DNA of 64,000 bases from Candidatus Calditenuis fumarioli (GCA_030059665.1 JANVYR010000002.1:321441-385440); one strand, 5' to 3'; counted from the stretch's first letter, positions 5,075 to 48,630 are shown. Notes: generated by a model from the letters alone, not told the origin. Numbers and translations: made by a program.

Positions 5075-6616
5075 TCAGATGGTCCTGGGCCTCCTGATCT
5101 TCCCCAAGCCAGCGGGCTCGAGGTTGAACACGATGGTCTTGATCACCATCATCTCCTCTATCGAGTACCCTATCCCCTCCCTGCCGAGGCCAGAGTCCTT
5201 CACGCCGCCGAACGGGAAGAAGCCGACGCCGTGCCTTGGGTAGTCGTTGATGGTGACCTCGCCCACCCGCAGCGCCTTCGCTACCCTCCACATCCGGTAG
5301 AAGTTGTTGGTGAAGACCGCGGCGTCGAGTCCGTACCTCGACCTCTCGGCGATCTGAAGCGCCTGGTCCTCGTCCCTTATCCGGAATATGGGGATGACGG
5401 GCCCGAACGTCTCCTCCCACAGGACTCTGGCGCTCTCGGGCACCTCGTCCAGCACCGTCGGCTGGTGGTAGGCACCCTCCCGCTGGCCCCCGTGGAGCAG
5501 CACCGCGCCCTTCTCCACCGCGTCCCTCACGAGACCGTTCACGCGCTCCGCCGCCTGCTCGTTTACCAGGGGGCCGATCCTCGTCGCCGGGTCCCTGGGG
5601 TCTCCGAGCTTCCAGTCCTCGACGCGCTTCAGGACCTCCTCGACGAACTCGTCGGCCACGCTTTCCTGCACCAGGACCGCGCTCACCGCATCGCACCTCT
5701 GTCCCGCGTTCCTGAGGGGCCCCTCGACGCACTTAGCGGCGCTCAGCCTCACGTCAGCGTCGTCCAGCACTATGGCGTACGCCTTCCCTCCCAGTTCGAG
5801 GTGGAGCATCTTCCCGACCGCGTGCCTCGCCACCTCCTTTCCCACCTCCGTGCTCCCGGTGAAGGAGATCATGCCGACGTCGGGGTGGGCCGCGAGGAGG
5901 CTGCCGAGGAAGCCGGGCCCCGTGACGACGTTGAGGACGCCGTCCGGCAGACCTGCCAGCTGAAAGGCCCTGGCCAGGAGCAGCATCGAGATCGGCGTCG
6001 AGCTGGATGGCTTGGCCACCACCGAGTTGGCCGCGAGTATGGCCGGTATCACCTTAGCTGAAGGTATGAAGAGCGGGTAGTTGAAGGGCCCGATGGCGCC
6101 CACAACGCCCACCGGCTCCCTCAGCACGATCGCGACCTTTCCCGCCGTGTCGGGCGACCAGTCACCGGGGATGTACTCGCCGCTGACCTTCCTGGAGTCC
6201 TCCATCGCGAGCCTGAGCCTCTCCGCGACGGCCCTCACCTCCCCCGGCGAATCGGATATCGGCCTCCCCATCTCTAGCGTTATCGTCCTGGCGAAGTCCT
6301 CCGCGTTGTCCCTTATTATTTTCGATACCTCCTCCATTATCTCGATCCTGTCTATAGCCGCGAGCGATCTGATCTTCCTCTGGTTCTCACGTGCCGACCT
6401 CACCGCCCGCTCGAGATCGGCCTCGTTGCACCTCGCAACTCGGGCGATAACCGAGCCGTCGATCGGAGTCCGCAGCTCGAAGGTCGACCCATCGGACGAA
6501 CCGGTCCAGGAACCGTCTATGAAGGTCTTGAAGACCGGAACGCCATCAGGCCCCTCCTCGTAGAGCTCCGAGAAGATCCTGCCGAGCTCGAGTCGGACGG
6601 ACGTCACCACGCGCAT
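5075..6616 (-). CDS. NAD(P)-dependent aldehyde dehydrogenase (GAPN-like)
   Basis: ELGGKAYAIV, FTGSTEVG and the catalytic Cys region are present; 513 aa. Confidence 0.85.
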   Translation of the reverse strand: MRVVTSVRLELGRIFSELYEEGPDGVPVFKTFIDGSWTGSSDGSTFELRTPIDGSVIARVARCNEADLERAVRSARENQRKIRSLAAIDRIEIMEEVSKIIRDNAEDFARTITLEMGRPISDSPGEVRAVAERLRLAMEDSRKVSGEYIPGDWSPDTAGKVAIVLREPVGVVGAIGPFNYPLFIPSAKVIPAILAANSVVAKPSSSTPISMLLLARAFQLAGLPDGVLNVVTGPGFLGSLLAAHPDVGMISFTGSTEVGKEVARHAVGKMLHLELGGKAYAIVLDDADVRLSAAKCVEGPLRNAGQRCDAVSAVLVQESVADEFVEEVLKRVEDWKLGDPRDPATRIGPLVNEQAAERVNGLVRDAVEKGAVLLHGGQREGAYHQPTVLDEVPESARVLWEETFGPVIPIFRIRDEDQALQIAERSRYGLDAAVFTNNFYRMWRVAKALRVGEVTINDYPRHGVGFFPFGGVKDSGLGREGIGYSIEEMMVIKTIVFNLEPAGLGKIRRPRTI

Positions 6617-8025: not shown

Positions 8026-8203
8026 CGCAACAAGAGCACCGTCACTAGATACTTACGATTTCCTCGGAAACACGAAACCGCGTAAAGGACCTGTTAAGGC
8101 GACGATTAGCCAACAGCGCACCAGCGGTGACGGGAAGAGCGTTTCAACAGAAATGAGACGGTCGCCTGTGATGTTCTCGTCATCCTGCGGACGGCGTTTC
8201 GAT

Positions 8204-8292
8204 AGCCCCGGGAGGGATTCGAACCCTCGACCACCGGCTCTCCCGGCCAACTATCATACAAGGCCGGCGCTCTACCGCTGAGCTACCGGGGC
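8204..8292 (-). tRNA. tRNA-Thr (anticodon UGU) with ~17-nt intron after position 37
   Basis: Acceptor GCCCCGG/CCGGGGC, D-arm GCTCAGCGGTAGAGC, T-arm GAGGGTTCGAATCCCTC. Anticodon stem CCGGC/GCCGG encloses CTTGTA[TGATAGTTGGCCGGGAG]A. U33 and A37 are in the right places. Confidence 0.65.
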
Positions 8293-8316
8293 CCTGAAGA
8301 GCGTTCACCTCCGACC

Positions 8317-41847: not shown

Positions 41848-42661
41848 CTAATTTAGGTGCCATGCGGACCCGATGGCCTCGGGTTGGGACGAGGAGAGCC
41901 CACGGGTCGAGCTGAAGGCAGAGAACAGGGTAGTCACGGAAAAGGCGTGAGGATCGGGAGGGTGGAGCGCTTTGGCATAGGGTGCGCGCCCGGACAGCTC
42001 GGGCGATTGGGAGTGGCGCGCTGAGGGCGTCCGGCTTACGCCTCCGCCCTTACACGCCCACCCCATCAACCCCCTCTTCTAGGGGAGCCCTCGTCGGGGC
42101 CCAAGGCCCGTTGCCGGGCCCTATAGGCCCCGATTGGCCGCCTATTTTTGGGAGGGGCTTCGGGCTTAGATGCTTTCAGCCCTTATCCCCAGGGGCGCGG
42201 CTGCCCGGCGTCGCCCTGTAGGACGACCGGCACACCGTTGGCCCCGGCCCTCCGTTCCTCTCGTACTAGGAGGACCTTGCCCTCAGGCGGCCCGCACCCC
42301 CAGCAGGTAGAATCCGACCTGGCTCACGCCGGTCTAAACCCAGCTCACGTTCCCCTTTGATAGGCGAGCAGCCTCACCCTTGGCCCCTGCTGCGAGGCCA
42401 GGATGGGAAGAGCCGACATCGAGGTACCAAGCCGCGGGGTCGATGGGGACTCTCGCCCGCGACGAGCCTGTTATCCCTGGGGTAACTTTTCTGTCACCAC
42501 CGGCCCCCACTGGTAGGGGCCGATGGATCGCTAGGCCCGGGTTTCCCCTCAGGACCCCTTGCGTTCGAGGGTCCTGTCAGGCCGGCTTTTGCCCTTGCAC
42601 TCTACAGCGGGTTTCTGTCCCGCCTGAGCCGACCTTTGGGCTCCCCCGATATCTTTTCGGG

Positions 42662-42692
<31 letters not shown>

Positions 42693-43534
42693 CCGTTGTC
42701 CCAGGGCACAGGCCCCGGTTAGCGGGACAGCCCCAGGTGGCCGGTGTTACATTGGCGCCTCCCCGGGCCCCCGGAGAGGCCCGGATCGACGGCTCCCGGC
42801 TACGCTATGCACCCAGAGCCATCCCGCAGCGACAGGCTGCAGTAAAGCTCCACAGGGTCTTCTCTCCCCGCTGGGGGTCCGTGGACTGTTCGTCCACGTT
42901 ATGTGGGTTCACGGGGCTCCGGGCCGGGACAGTGGGGCCCTCGTTGATCCATTCGTGCGCGTCGGAACTCACCCGACAAGGCATTTGGCTACCTTAAGAG
43001 GGTCAGGATTACCCCCGGCGCTAGCCGGCCCTTATCCCGGTTGGACCCGGGTTTCAGGTACCGGTGCTGGCCAGGATTGAGAAGCCGTTCAAAGCCTTTC
43101 GGCCTTGCGGCTTCCTATGTTTTTATTAAACAGTCGGGACCCCCTTGTCACTGCGACCTGCCAACCCCTCCTCGTCGGAGAGGAAGGCAGGCACCCCTTC
43201 TCCCGAGGTTACGGGGCCAATTTGCCGAGTTCCCTGGCCCGGAGTCACCCCAGACGCCTTGGCCTTCTCAGCCAGGGGCACCAGTGTCGGATCTAGGTAC
43301 GGTCTCCCGGGATCGTTCCGGACCCCCTTTTCACTGGCTCCAGGGATCGGCCGAAGCGGCATGCGCCGCCCCGTCACGCCTTCACCCGGTTCTCGCCATT
43401 ACGGCCCTCCCCGGGCTTCAGCGCTTGGCCGGAGCTACGGCCCCGGTCGGCCTACCCCGAAGCGTCAGGGGTCCGGCCTGCGTTGCCGCACCTACCCGGG
43501 AGGCGCCGGAATCTTAACCGGCTTCCCCTTCGGC

Positions 43535-44170
43535 CTACCCGGTTAAGGTCGGCCTTAGGACCGGCTTACTCCCGGCTGACGACGCATTGCCGGGAAACCC
43601 GTGCCCTTCCGGCGGAGGGGATTCGAGGAGAGGGAGAAGGGCCGTCCGTTCCCAAAAGGTGAACAAGTCAAGGAGGAAGGAATTGTAAACCCTAATTGAG
43701 AGAGTTCCAAAATTTGAGCGTGATGTTCGCGATCCACGCCTCACTACGGATTTGCGGAATTGCGACAAGGGTATATTCAGCAGATTTGACCAATATCTCT
43801 CCAATTTCTGTACGACCTCGTCACGTTCCCATTTAGCGAGTTTAATTTGCAATCGAGGTTTAATCGCACTTCTCGTCACCCCTAATATCTCCAAAAATTT
43901 GACCATGGCCAGAAGCTTATTAGGGTCGCTATTAACGAATTCGAACCTCGTCTTCACGGTTTTGGGCCTCTTGGTTCCTTCACCTGCGTAGAGGCCTATA
44001 GCGTACCCGAATAAGATCGCGGGGACGAATCGTCGGATAACGATGCTTCCCACCCGGCCGTTTCGGTACTTATATTGAATGATTATCCTGTCGTCCTCAA
44101 TTATCTTCCTAATCACTTTGCTAAAGTTCAAGGTTTCGGGAACCAATTCGGCAATATCTACACAAATCAT
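43535..44170 (-). CDS. LAGLIDADG homing endonuclease (intron-encoded); C-terminal ~30 codons read into 3' exon
   Basis: ILFGYAIGLYAGEGTK is a LAGLIDADG-type motif. ATG at 44170 is inside the intron. Confidence 0.7.
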   Translation of the reverse strand: MICVDIAELVPETLNFSKVIRKIIEDDRIIIQYKYRNGRVGSIVIRRFVPAILFGYAIGLYAGEGTKRPKTVKTRFEFVNSDPNKLLAMVKFLEILGVTRSAIKPRLQIKLAKWERDEVVQKLERYWSNLLNIPLSQFRKSVVRRGSRTSRSNFGTLSIRVYNSFLLDLFTFWERTALLPLLESPPPEGHGFPGNASSAGSKPVLRPTLTG

Positions 44171-44229
44171 GCCCTTTACTTCGTAGATTTGTTTAAGACT
44201 GGTTATTTAAAGATTATTGGACGGCCCTG
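43636..44229 (-). mobile_element. Archaeal rRNA intron (bulge-helix-bulge-like) in 23S domain III-equivalent hairpin
   Basis: A 0.6-kb AT-rich block. Its flanks GAGAGGG[UCA]GGGCCGUC and GACGGCCC[UUCUC]CCUCUC form a long bulged helix. Removing it restores an E. coli-like AAAG-CGGGUGAAAAGCCCG-CUCGCCGGAAG topology. Confidence 0.6.
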
Positions 44230-45911
44230 ACCCTCTCTTTCCCACCCCTCTTCGCTGTCTACTACCACCGGGATCTGCATTGGCGGCCGGTCCACGGGAC
44301 CTCACGGCCCCGCTTCTGCCCAGCCGCCACGCCCCCCTACCCCCACCCGTGCAAGGCACGGGTGAGCCCGGGTTTCGGCGGCCCGCTTAGACCCGTCAAT
44401 TTTCGGGGCCCCCGTCCTCGGCGGGTAAGCTGTTACGCACTTCTTAGCCGATGGCTGCTTCTAAGCCTACGGCCCCGCTGTCTCAGGACGGGGACGCCCT
44501 TCGGTTTGTCACTTAGCGGGCACTTAGGGGCCTTAACCCGAGGTCTGGGTTGTTCCCCTCTCGGTCCTGGAGCTTACCCCCAGTACCCCACTCCCGGGAT
44601 CTACGGCGCCCGCGGGTTCGTAGTTTGAAAGGAGAGCGGGGCCTCATCGGCCCCTTTCTCCCCTATCAGTGCCCTACCCCGCGGGCAACCTCCCCCGGGG
44701 CTGTCCTGCGAGACACTTCGGGGGGAACTAGCTATCACCGGGCTCGGTTAGCTTTTGACTCCTAGCCCCAGGTCAGGGGACCGAATTGCACGTCAGGACC
44801 CCTATTCGGGCCTCGACCGGGGTTTCCCCCGGCTTCACCCTGCCCAGGGCTAGATCGCCCGGTTTCTAGCCTCACGGGCGTGGCTACAGGCCCTTTCGGA
44901 CCCCGCCCCTCGCCGGGGCTAACCCCGGCTGCGGGCGCTCGGTTTCCCTACGCCTCCGGGCTTACAGCCCTTAGACTCGCCACACCCGTGAACTCCCCGG
45001 CCCGTGTTTCAAGACGGAGCGGACGACCCTGGGATTGTCCCCGCGCGGCCCCTTGCGGGGCCTTGACGGGGATTTCCCTTTCGGGCCGCCCTCGTCTGTT
45101 ACCGGCCGGTTTCAGGCGCTTTTCACCCCCCTCTCGGGGTACTTTTCACCTTTCGCTCACGCTACTGGTCCGCTATCGGTCTTGGGACGTATTTAGCCTT
45201 GGAGGCCAGTGGCCCCCAACTTCCCGCACCATATCCGAGGTGCGGTACTCTGGGATCCGGGGCATCACCCATCCGCCCTTCGCCTACGGGGCTGTCACCC
45301 TCTGTGGCCCCCCATTCCAGGGGAGTTCGGCTCGGGCTTCAGGGTGGACCCCCGGCCCTTAACCCCACATTCCCCCTGAGTTTCCCCAGGGGGTTCGGTT
45401 TGGGCTTCTCCCCGTTCGGTCGCCCCTACTAGGGGAATCTCGTTTGATTTCTTCTCCTCCCCCTACTTGGATGCTTCCGTTCGGGGGGTTCCCGATCCCG
45501 GCTCGAGGCCGGGACCGCGGCGAGCCGAAGCCCGCCGCAGGATGTCCCATTAGGAGATCCCCGGATCTACCCCTGCCTGCGGGTACCCGGGGCTTATCGC
45601 AGCTTGCCACGTCCTTCGTCGGCGCCCAAGCCGAGGCATCCACCGGCCGGCGTACCCCTGTCCGGGCCAAGGCGCACCCTATCTTGCCGCGCTCCACCCT
45701 CCCATGACGCGGTCACAGCATGAGCTCCCGCATCCCGCCGTGGGGCCTCCCCCGCGGCGTTCACGCCAACTGGGTATTGTGCAAAAGGACCCTATTAAAC
45801 CATCCGACGAATAAGGCAGTAAAGAGTGCCCAATCATACGGGTCCTGCCAGCCCGTCGCCCCGCTGCCCCTGCAAATGGCAACCCACGACGTCGGACTAA
45901 AATGAAACCCG

Positions 45912-48295: not shown

Positions 48296-48630
48296 GGAGG
48301 CGGCGGGTAGGGCCAGGGGGCTAGCCCTCCCCTTCCCGTAGCGGACCCGAAACGGGCTCACGCGGGGGCCAGCAACCGGCGGCGTACGGCCGCGTTGCGG
48401 GGCTAGGGAAGGCAGGGGGCGGATGAGCGCGCGTCCCGGTGGAGGCGGGTAGGGCCCCACGCCCTCCGTAGGGAGGGCCTCTGGGGTCCGCGCGCGCCGA
48501 ACCGCGTCAGGCCCGGGAGGGAGCAGCGCTAAGGCGCGGCTCGCCTGCTGCCGGGAAAACGTGCGGGACGCTGCCGGCCTGACCGATCCCCGCACCGCGA
48601 CCGGAAACCGCCGGAGCCGCCGCCTCCTAA
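48296..48630 (+). ncRNA. Signal recognition particle RNA (7S/SRP RNA)
   Basis: Helix-8 motif GUCAGGCCCGGGAGGGAGCAGCGCUAAGGCGCGGC matches the 4.5S/7S consensus GGUCAGGUCCGGAAGGAAGCAGCCAAGGCAG. An 11-bp terminal helix pairs GGAGGCGGCGG (48296-306) with CCGCCGCCUCC (48617-627). GGGCUAGCCC-type Alu-domain hairpins are present. Confidence 0.7.

Follow-up and report, generated by a model that had tools for sequence, protein, structure and literature searches.

A predicted BHB-type intron with a divergent LAGLIDADG reading frame in the 23S rRNA gene of a Calditenuaceae archaeon

The 23S rRNA gene in the 64,000-nucleotide stretch of DNA analysed here (the window) is interrupted by a protein-coding block of 617 nt, which is very probably an archaeal intron excised by bulge-helix-bulge (BHB) splicing. 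With a canonical splice motif at its ends, the element appears to belong to the classical archaeal rRNA intron type, like the introns that carry I-DmoI and I-Vdi141I. It is quite likely that the complete scheme applies, in which the BHB intron also acts as a mobile (homing) element. The main reading of the preliminary description of this DNA therefore holds, while two of the features that it regarded as unusual, a relaxed BHB and a euryarchaeal host, fall.

The interrupted gene occupies 41987..45668 on the minus strand, on which all features described below also lie, and matches the Rfam model RF02540 (LSU_rRNA_archaea) with 2638 bits over model positions 1-2987. Including the intron it measures 3682 nt, against 2987 positions in the model. 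In the local Rfam alignment, 618 nt stand opposite a single consensus nucleotide, in the loop of the hairpin at model positions ~1404-1422, for which the consensus is GugggGUGAGAAuCcccaC. By alignment, this hairpin is E. coli rrlH 1277-1293 (GCGGG-UGAAAAG-CCCGC), which in standard numbering is helix 47, where domain III begins. Alignment of the exons to a 23S model, a check proposed in the preliminary description, places the insert in the loop that caps this hairpin, between positions 1287 and 1288 when E. coli rrlH is the reference. The AT-rich block noted earlier in the minus-strand 23S gene is real: the GC content, first put at about 40% against 68%, was measured as 45.2% for the intron and 66.4% for the 23S exons (63.2% for the window), and along the sequence it amounts to 0.43-0.50 within the block versus 0.65-0.72 in the flanks. 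The limits first assigned to the element, 44250..43535, were wrong, and have to be replaced by 44238..43622.

Both ends of the block fold together. The order of motifs is GAGGGG-UGGG-[AAA]-GAGAGGG ... CCCUCUC-CUCG-[AAU]-CCCCUC. The outer helix is the 6-bp stem of helix 47 itself, formed by GAGGGG in the 5' exon (44245..44250) and CCCCUC in the 3' exon (43615..43620), as placed by the Rfam alignment and covariation. The central 4-bp helix pairs UGGG (44241..44244), which belongs to the 5' exon and provides the first four nucleotides of the mature loop, with CUCG (43624..43627), the last paired nucleotides of the intron, identified by covariation. Two 3-nt bulges, delimited by comparison with relatives, hold the splice sites: AAA (44238..44240) the 5' site, and AAU (43621..43623), which is UAU or UGU in relatives, the 3' site. 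The inner helix C is formed by GAGAGGG (44231..44237) and CCCUCUC (43628..43634), according to the MFE fold and covariation. Further inside the intron, the MFE fold contains helix D, with the 5' strand GGGCCGUCC (44219..44227) and the 3' strand GGACGGCCC (43639..43647), the latter also encoding the C-terminus of the intron ORF. The arrangement is a canonical 3-4-3 BHB, with the bulges AAA and AAU on opposite strands and the helix UGGG:CUCG between them, as in the published definition, a 4-bp helix with a 3-nt bulge at either end, one on each strand (PMC7714728). Flanking helices are present on both sides (hBHBh'), namely the 6-bp helix 47 stem and helix C with 7-8 bp. The fold of the intron ends has an MFE of -47.1 kcal/mol (z = -3.8 against shuffles). 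The complementary segments reported in the preliminary description, which are the strands of helices C and D, exist and pair, but the relaxed BHB with bulges of 3 and 5 nt is not borne out, and the canonical one lies 10 nt further out. UCA and UUCUC, previously considered as the splice bulges, lie opposite one another as an internal loop (UCA/UUCU) between helices C and D.

In canonical tRNA introns at position 37/38, cleavage occurs after the second nucleotide of the bulge. The intron limits given here follow from applying this rule to both bulges, in agreement with the Rfam insert and the relatives, and put the 5' splice site at 44239/44238 and the 3' splice site at 43622/43621. A cut one nucleotide earlier in both bulges would give an identical ligated product in the window copy. 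The predicted 5' exon ends at 44239 and the predicted 3' exon begins at 43621 (with UCCCCUCCGCC), so that the ligated junction is expected to read ...GGGGUGGGAA/UCCCCUC, and the junction of a circular intron would join ...CCUCUCCUCGAA to AGAGAGGGUCAGG. Excision yields GAGGGG-UGGGAAU-CCCCUC, with U43621 as nucleotide 7 of the mature loop, and this product has the loop length (7 nt) and sequence pattern of the Rfam consensus. The earlier observation that the exons restore a hairpin without the block is thus confirmed, the hairpin aligning to E. coli 1277-1293. The relatives align colinearly with the spliced gene as far as position 1430. Their spliced loop, UGAGAAU, is exactly the Rfam consensus and also the loop of an intron-less relative (L075). 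The canonical motif and the consensus loop left on excision support the interpretation of the block as an archaeal BHB-type intron.

Inserts at the same site were found through the protein database (L004-L008), in GTDB genomes (L011-L012) and in JGI metagenomes (L063-L069), and covariation was assessed on 11 distinct same-site introns for four helices with 27 pairs. In the four helices, 95.6% of the cells are paired, compared with 45-64% when the partners are slid; compensatory changes occur in 14 pairs, and none of 500 shuffles performed equally well. For the BHB alone, the paired fraction is 98.1%, and its geometry is kept in all 11 distinct copies, as is the sequence of the 5' bulge AAA. 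The central helix is paired in 44 of 44 cells, while its pairs vary among A-U, G-C and G-U (UGAG/CUCA in relatives, UGGG/CCCA in HR02, UGGG/CUCG in the window). The helix 47 outer stem is paired in 100% of the cells and has two compensatory pairs; for helices C and D, compensatory changes were found in 5 of 8 and 6 of 9 pairs, respectively.

The host belongs to the Calditenuaceae (Caldarchaeales, "Aigarchaeota"; Nitrososphaerota). The nearest named genomes by 23S identity are Ca. Calditenuaceae archaeon HR02 (90-95%) and Ca. Wolframiiraptor (gerlachensis) (84-86%), both Nitrososphaerota, and the previous assignment to a euryarchaeal, Thermoplasmata-like lineage is rejected. Two assemblies, GCA_042137355.1 and GCA_038741315.1, are nearly identical to the one studied here. 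Published work on this group, formerly called Aigarchaeota, already describes 16S rRNA introns that encode homing endonucleases (PMC3082918, PMC4496867) and a group I intron at LSU/1923 (PMC6125680). The intron described here is carried by HR02, by the Wolframiiraptor/L006 group (84-86%) and by L004 (76-78%). It is absent from L075, which has the uninterrupted sequence GAGGGGTGAGAATCCCCTC and shares 91.7% identity with the spliced 23S across 2.9 kb, and also from L076 (88%) and L077 (86%). Among the carriers, L012, L066, L067 and L069 have broken or truncated ORFs, and in L011 the N-terminus is affected. The decayed ORFs and the intron-less relatives fit the cycle in which homing endonuclease genes are gained, decay and are lost. 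The amino acid identity of the ORFs scales with that of the rRNA (78% at 90-95%, 55% at ~85% and 41% at ~77% rRNA identity). Much of this pattern is accounted for by vertical inheritance with occasional losses, which fits it no less well than active homing.

The intron ORF comprises 183 codons, from the ATG at 44170 to the last intron base (43622..44170), as delineated by homologues, dN/dS and an AlphaFold model with a pLDDT of 89.7. It leaves only 68 nt of the intron outside, all upstream of the start codon. The 211-aa ORF of the preliminary description exists as a genomic frame at 44170..43535, but its last 28 codons are read-through into the 3' exon. Homologues with 41-78% identity are found at this position of the 23S gene, and the tails of the close ones enter the same exon. 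The dN/dS ratio of 0.10-0.19 (unsaturated pairs) indicates that the ORF is a maintained gene. A LAGLIDADG-like motif, ILFGYAIGLYAGEG, spans residues 52-65 (43976..44017), as recognized by comparison of the family profile with I-DmoI. In this comparison, a 67-member profile (E=1.7e-5) aligns ...GLaLYwgEGtK... with ...GLYVAEGDK... of I-DmoI over the second of its LAGLIDADG motifs, the strand after it and a helix. The corresponding residues in the window protein are GLYAGEG, and Glu64 falls on the catalytic Glu117 of I-DmoI. E64 and G65 are kept in at least 90% of the 67 family members, and Glu64 is presumed to be the metal-binding catalytic residue. The presence of a LAGLIDADG ORF in the block had been proposed earlier, with a comparison to the I-DmoI/I-PorI enzymes as a check. 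Motif and profile match bear this out, yet the protein is not of their two-motif type: it has one LAGLIDADG motif only, and residues 1-50 form beta strands that lack a second one.

Recognition of the protein required the large family. A profile of 7 sequences found no match among PDB sequences, and I-DmoI was reached only with the profile of 67. By itself, the window protein has no Pfam match at E<=1 and no NCBIfam match at E<=0.01, and Foldseek returned no match at E<=0.001 in PDB and BFVD. Pfam LAGLIDADG_3 is matched by 8 of the 67 relatives (best E=6.9e-5), and an hhalign comparison of the family with an ORF of LAGLIDADG_3 type from a neighbouring intron was not significant. At E<=0.001, the family has 3,575 cluster representatives. 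The N-terminal beta-rich domain is present in the intron copies, while free-standing bacterial relatives have a helix-turn-helix in its place. We conclude that the protein is a divergent single-motif LAGLIDADG protein, with membership supported by profile homology and the putative catalytic residue and not by curated models. The window copy probably encodes an active homing endonuclease.

It seems very unlikely that the insertion is not spliced, and either persists as an expansion segment in the mature 23S rRNA or is excised without ligation, leaving a fragmented rRNA. A terminal hairpin loop is a typical place for expansion segments and for bacterial intervening sequences, but here a canonical, covarying 3-4-3 BHB frames the block exactly, the block is AT-rich and protein-coding in a GC-rich rRNA, and relatives at 86-92% rRNA identity lack precisely this block and retain the consensus loop. 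Moreover, cleavage at an archaeal BHB is followed by ligation (PMC7714728). An expansion segment common to the lineage was rejected, with the block absent from L075, L076 and L077 and present in others at 77-95%. It appears extremely improbable that the block is a self-splicing intron, of group I or group II, with a homing endonuclease gene. Such group I introns do occur in archaeal 23S genes, as at LSU/1923 in Ca. Caldiarchaeum (PMC6125680), and some bacterial relatives of the protein adjoin group I introns (L043, L055). Against this, the 68 nt outside the ORF are too little for a ribozyme core, and the ends of the block form a BHB. A search of 43520-44340 (Rfam, E<=0.01, permissive filters) gave no match to group I, group II or other RNA families, and the whole window has no Intron_gpI match at the gathering score.

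It is also conceivable, though unlikely, that the intron is spliced while its protein no longer homes. The ORF would then encode a LAGLIDADG derivative, either domesticated or in decay, such as a helper that binds RNA or DNA, or a plainly inactive protein, and the element would be kept by vertical descent. However, intact copies are maintained at the low dN/dS given above, the residue aligned with Glu117 of I-DmoI is conserved across the family, and the intron is patchily distributed among similarly distant relatives. A BHB intron with a homing function remains the preferred reading.

According to this reading, the intron would be transcribed within the pre-23S rRNA. The helix 47 stem, the 4-bp helix and helices C and D would then fold and expose the two 3-nt bulges 4 bp apart, a folding established by the comparative analysis. 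By analogy with the established pathway, the tRNA/rRNA splicing endonuclease would cut in both bulges, an RNA ligase would join the exons to give the 7-nt loop UGGGAAU, and the excised intron would probably be circularised. A heterotetrameric splicing endonuclease is encoded by the related Ca. Caldiarchaeum (PMC3082918). The window itself contains a tRNA-Thr gene with a 17-nt intron at 37/38, which shows that the genome needs a BHB splicing pathway, and nothing beyond that. Translation of the ORF would yield a protein of ~183 aa in which a beta-rich N-terminal domain is joined to a single LAGLIDADG domain. With only one such domain, the enzyme is expected to work as a homodimer. Its target would be intron-less 23S rDNA, cut at the pseudo-palindromic sequence of the helix 47 hairpin, and repair would copy the intron into this DNA. 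This last step is suggested by the purifying selection, by the presence and absence of the intron among relatives and by the decayed copies. The predicted target DNA (...GAAGAGGGGTGGGAATCCCCTCCGCC... / GACAGCGAAGAGGGGTGGGAATCCCCTCCGCCGGAAGG in intron-less form) encodes an rRNA hairpin and is thus inherently palindromic, a form well matched to an enzyme that works as a homodimer. With the insertion point as its centre, the empty site shows symmetry at 7 of 12 positions, but several neighbouring centres also reach 7/12, from G-runs, and the symmetry is weak evidence.

The reading frame of the intron does not end within it. An in-intron stop codon is absent from every copy of the ORF, the window copy included; the intron always ends on a third codon position, and the frame through the 3' end of the intron is open even in decayed copies. 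The missing stop sits uneasily with the idea of a self-contained gene for a homing endonuclease. Since no stop lies within the intron, translation would have to terminate on the circular junction or on the precursor. On the circular junction, an in-frame stop follows 9-27 codons on across the copies. In the window, where the frame reads GAA/AGA GAG GGU CAG GGC CGU CCA AUA AUC UUU AAA UAA (slash at the junction), it would be the UAA at 44203..44205, after 11 codons. On the unspliced precursor, the stop comes after 4-28 codons (28 in the window). With both continuations stopping within 4-28 codons in every copy, the comparison does not discriminate between the templates. The predicted C-terminal peptides differ, being ...LLPLLEREGQGRPIIFK for the circular template and ...LLPLLESPPPEGHGF... 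for the precursor. That the endonuclease ORF is properly terminated only on the circularised intron, which would then be an obligatory circular mRNA, is a tentative idea that we consider rather doubtful. If it were true, a circular intron serving as an archaeal mRNA would couple endonuclease production to splicing. The stop-less ORF provides a concrete case for asking whether archaeal circular introns act as messengers. A literature search for intron ORFs completed by circularisation found none, an absence that does not prove novelty.

Among the closest known systems is the I-DmoI intron of Desulfurococcus mobilis, which is likewise ~0.6 kb long, lies in an archaeal 23S gene, is framed by a BHB and contains an ORF homologous to that of the window. 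Its insertion site is in domain IV, as opposed to 1287/1288. I-DmoI has two motifs and is a monomer, whereas the window protein has one motif and an unrelated N-terminal beta-rich domain, and its ORF lacks an in-intron stop, unlike the D. mobilis intron ORF. The 586-bp 23S intron Vdi141.L1927 of Vulcanisaeta distributa encodes, like the window intron, a single-motif LAGLIDADG enzyme, the homodimeric I-Vdi141I. The target of I-Vdi141I is a pseudo-palindrome with 7/12 symmetry, the same degree as at the empty site here (PMC2602781). The 16S introns of Ca. Caldiarchaeum subterraneum and the Thermoproteales, from the same group or neighbours, are also BHB-type and encode homing endonucleases, and intron-plus and intron-minus alleles coexist there, but they reside in 16S rather than 23S genes (PMC3082918, PMC4496867). 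The rRNA insertions of CPR bacteria, including that of I-ShaI, share single-domain homodimeric LAGLIDADG enzymes and a frequent location at the tops of stem-loops, and their sites also hold ORF-less and degenerate copies (PMC11270868). However, they are mostly group I, bacterial and located at 23S 1917-2657, in contrast to the archaeal BHB intron of the window, and their enzymes, unlike the window protein, are recognised by Pfam models (LAGLIDADG_1, _2 or _3; PMC11270868). Bacterial 23S intervening sequences (in the helix 25 and helix 45 loops) likewise add sequence to a hairpin loop above a long closing stem. They are short and non-coding, and are excised by RNase III without ligation, which leaves fragmented rRNA, whereas the window insert is framed by a BHB, carries an ORF under selection and resides in an archaeon.

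The preliminary description had considered a domain III site to lie outside the usual sites in domains IV and V, and this is borne out by the absence of 1287/1288 from the site lists of three publications. Published 23S intron sites are L1927 (PMC2602781), LSU/1923, 1931, 2500 and 2593 (PMC6125680), and 1917-2657 (PMC11270868). In the literature searched, which gives sites at 1917-1952 and 2500-2657, 1287/1288 does not occur. The enzyme lineage was not found described there either, and such an absence does not prove novelty. The intron would add the helix 47 loop to the known archaeal 23S sites, which cluster in domains IV and V, and would extend protein-coding 23S introns to the Caldarchaeales. 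Because Pfam and NCBIfam lack a model for the family, surveys that look for homing endonucleases and rRNA introns by protein domain miss it. Introns of this kind, when unrecognised, make rRNA genes longer and can interfere with primers, binning and phylogeny based on rRNA in hot-spring archaea. In sibling assemblies, the same ORF is annotated as an unnamed 198-aa protein that overlaps the rRNA.

The classical L1927 homing site is unoccupied in the 23S gene of the window, where it lies at ~42998 on the minus strand, between CCTGACCCTC and TTAAGGTAGCCAAA, and the sequence present there is the I-Vdi141I target. In both sibling assemblies, GCA_042137355.1 and GCA_038741315.1 (loci L002 and L003), this site is occupied by an intron that is 854 nt long and contains a LAGLIDADG_3 ORF. 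The 23S genes of the siblings are 99.96-100% identical to that of the window 5' of the site, and ~99% identical 3' of it. The occupied and empty states of the L1927 site amount to a direct intron-plus/intron-minus polymorphism inside one species-level population. The named relative HR02 has an intron of 831 nt at this site. The L1927-site intron extends over 4135-4988 in L002 and over 5176-6006 in relative locus L011, and is also present in L003.

Further 23S introns are found in relatives. L006 carries an additional one near E. coli ~1785 (1178-1745), the LAGLIDADG_3 ORF of which (1210-1779) extends ~34 nt beyond the 3' boundary into the exon. As this ORF also overruns its intron, ORFs that lack a stop codon within their intron may be frequent in this lineage. 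L077 (JGI Ga0599197_41903), with 84-94% 23S identity to the window depending on the segment, is devoid of the 1287 intron (the BHB intron at E. coli 1287/1288), and bears three further inserts, which measure 273 nt at spliced-window position ~2082, 643 nt at 2580 (with an ORF that has a faint LAGLIDADG_3 match) and 309 nt at 2717.

The ORF of the 1287 intron is annotated in the sibling assemblies as a nameless 198-aa protein (P0001; window 43535-44131, minus strand), for which an internal TTG was taken as the start codon and which extends 86 nt into the 3' exon. This gene call overlaps the rRNA and masks the intron. The family of the intron protein comprises 3,575 cluster representatives, and neither Pfam nor NCBIfam has a model for it. 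Most bacterial members have an N-terminal helix-turn-helix (HTH) domain. At 8 of the 10 non-rRNA loci scanned, a tRNA gene is located ~50-400 nt from the free-standing relative (loci listed for these relatives: L014, L017, L018, L019, L025, L027, L030, L060). At two Microgenomates loci (L043, L055), a group I intron adjoins it.

The 23S gene of the window is solitary and followed by a histidyl-tRNA synthetase gene; no 16S or 5S rRNA gene was found in the 64 kb (1-64000). This arrangement may account for the Thermoplasmata-like affinity proposed in the preliminary description. The tRNA-Thr(UGU) gene (8203-8293, minus strand, 91 nt) has a 17-nt intron after position 37, as judged by eye, and the genome therefore requires BHB splicing. 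An SRP RNA is encoded at 48301-48622 on the plus strand. Its Archaea_SRP score is 81.6 bits, against a gathering score of 96.5 for that family; with default settings, Rfam therefore shows just an 87-nt 'Bacteria_small_SRP' match at this locus (48476-48562).
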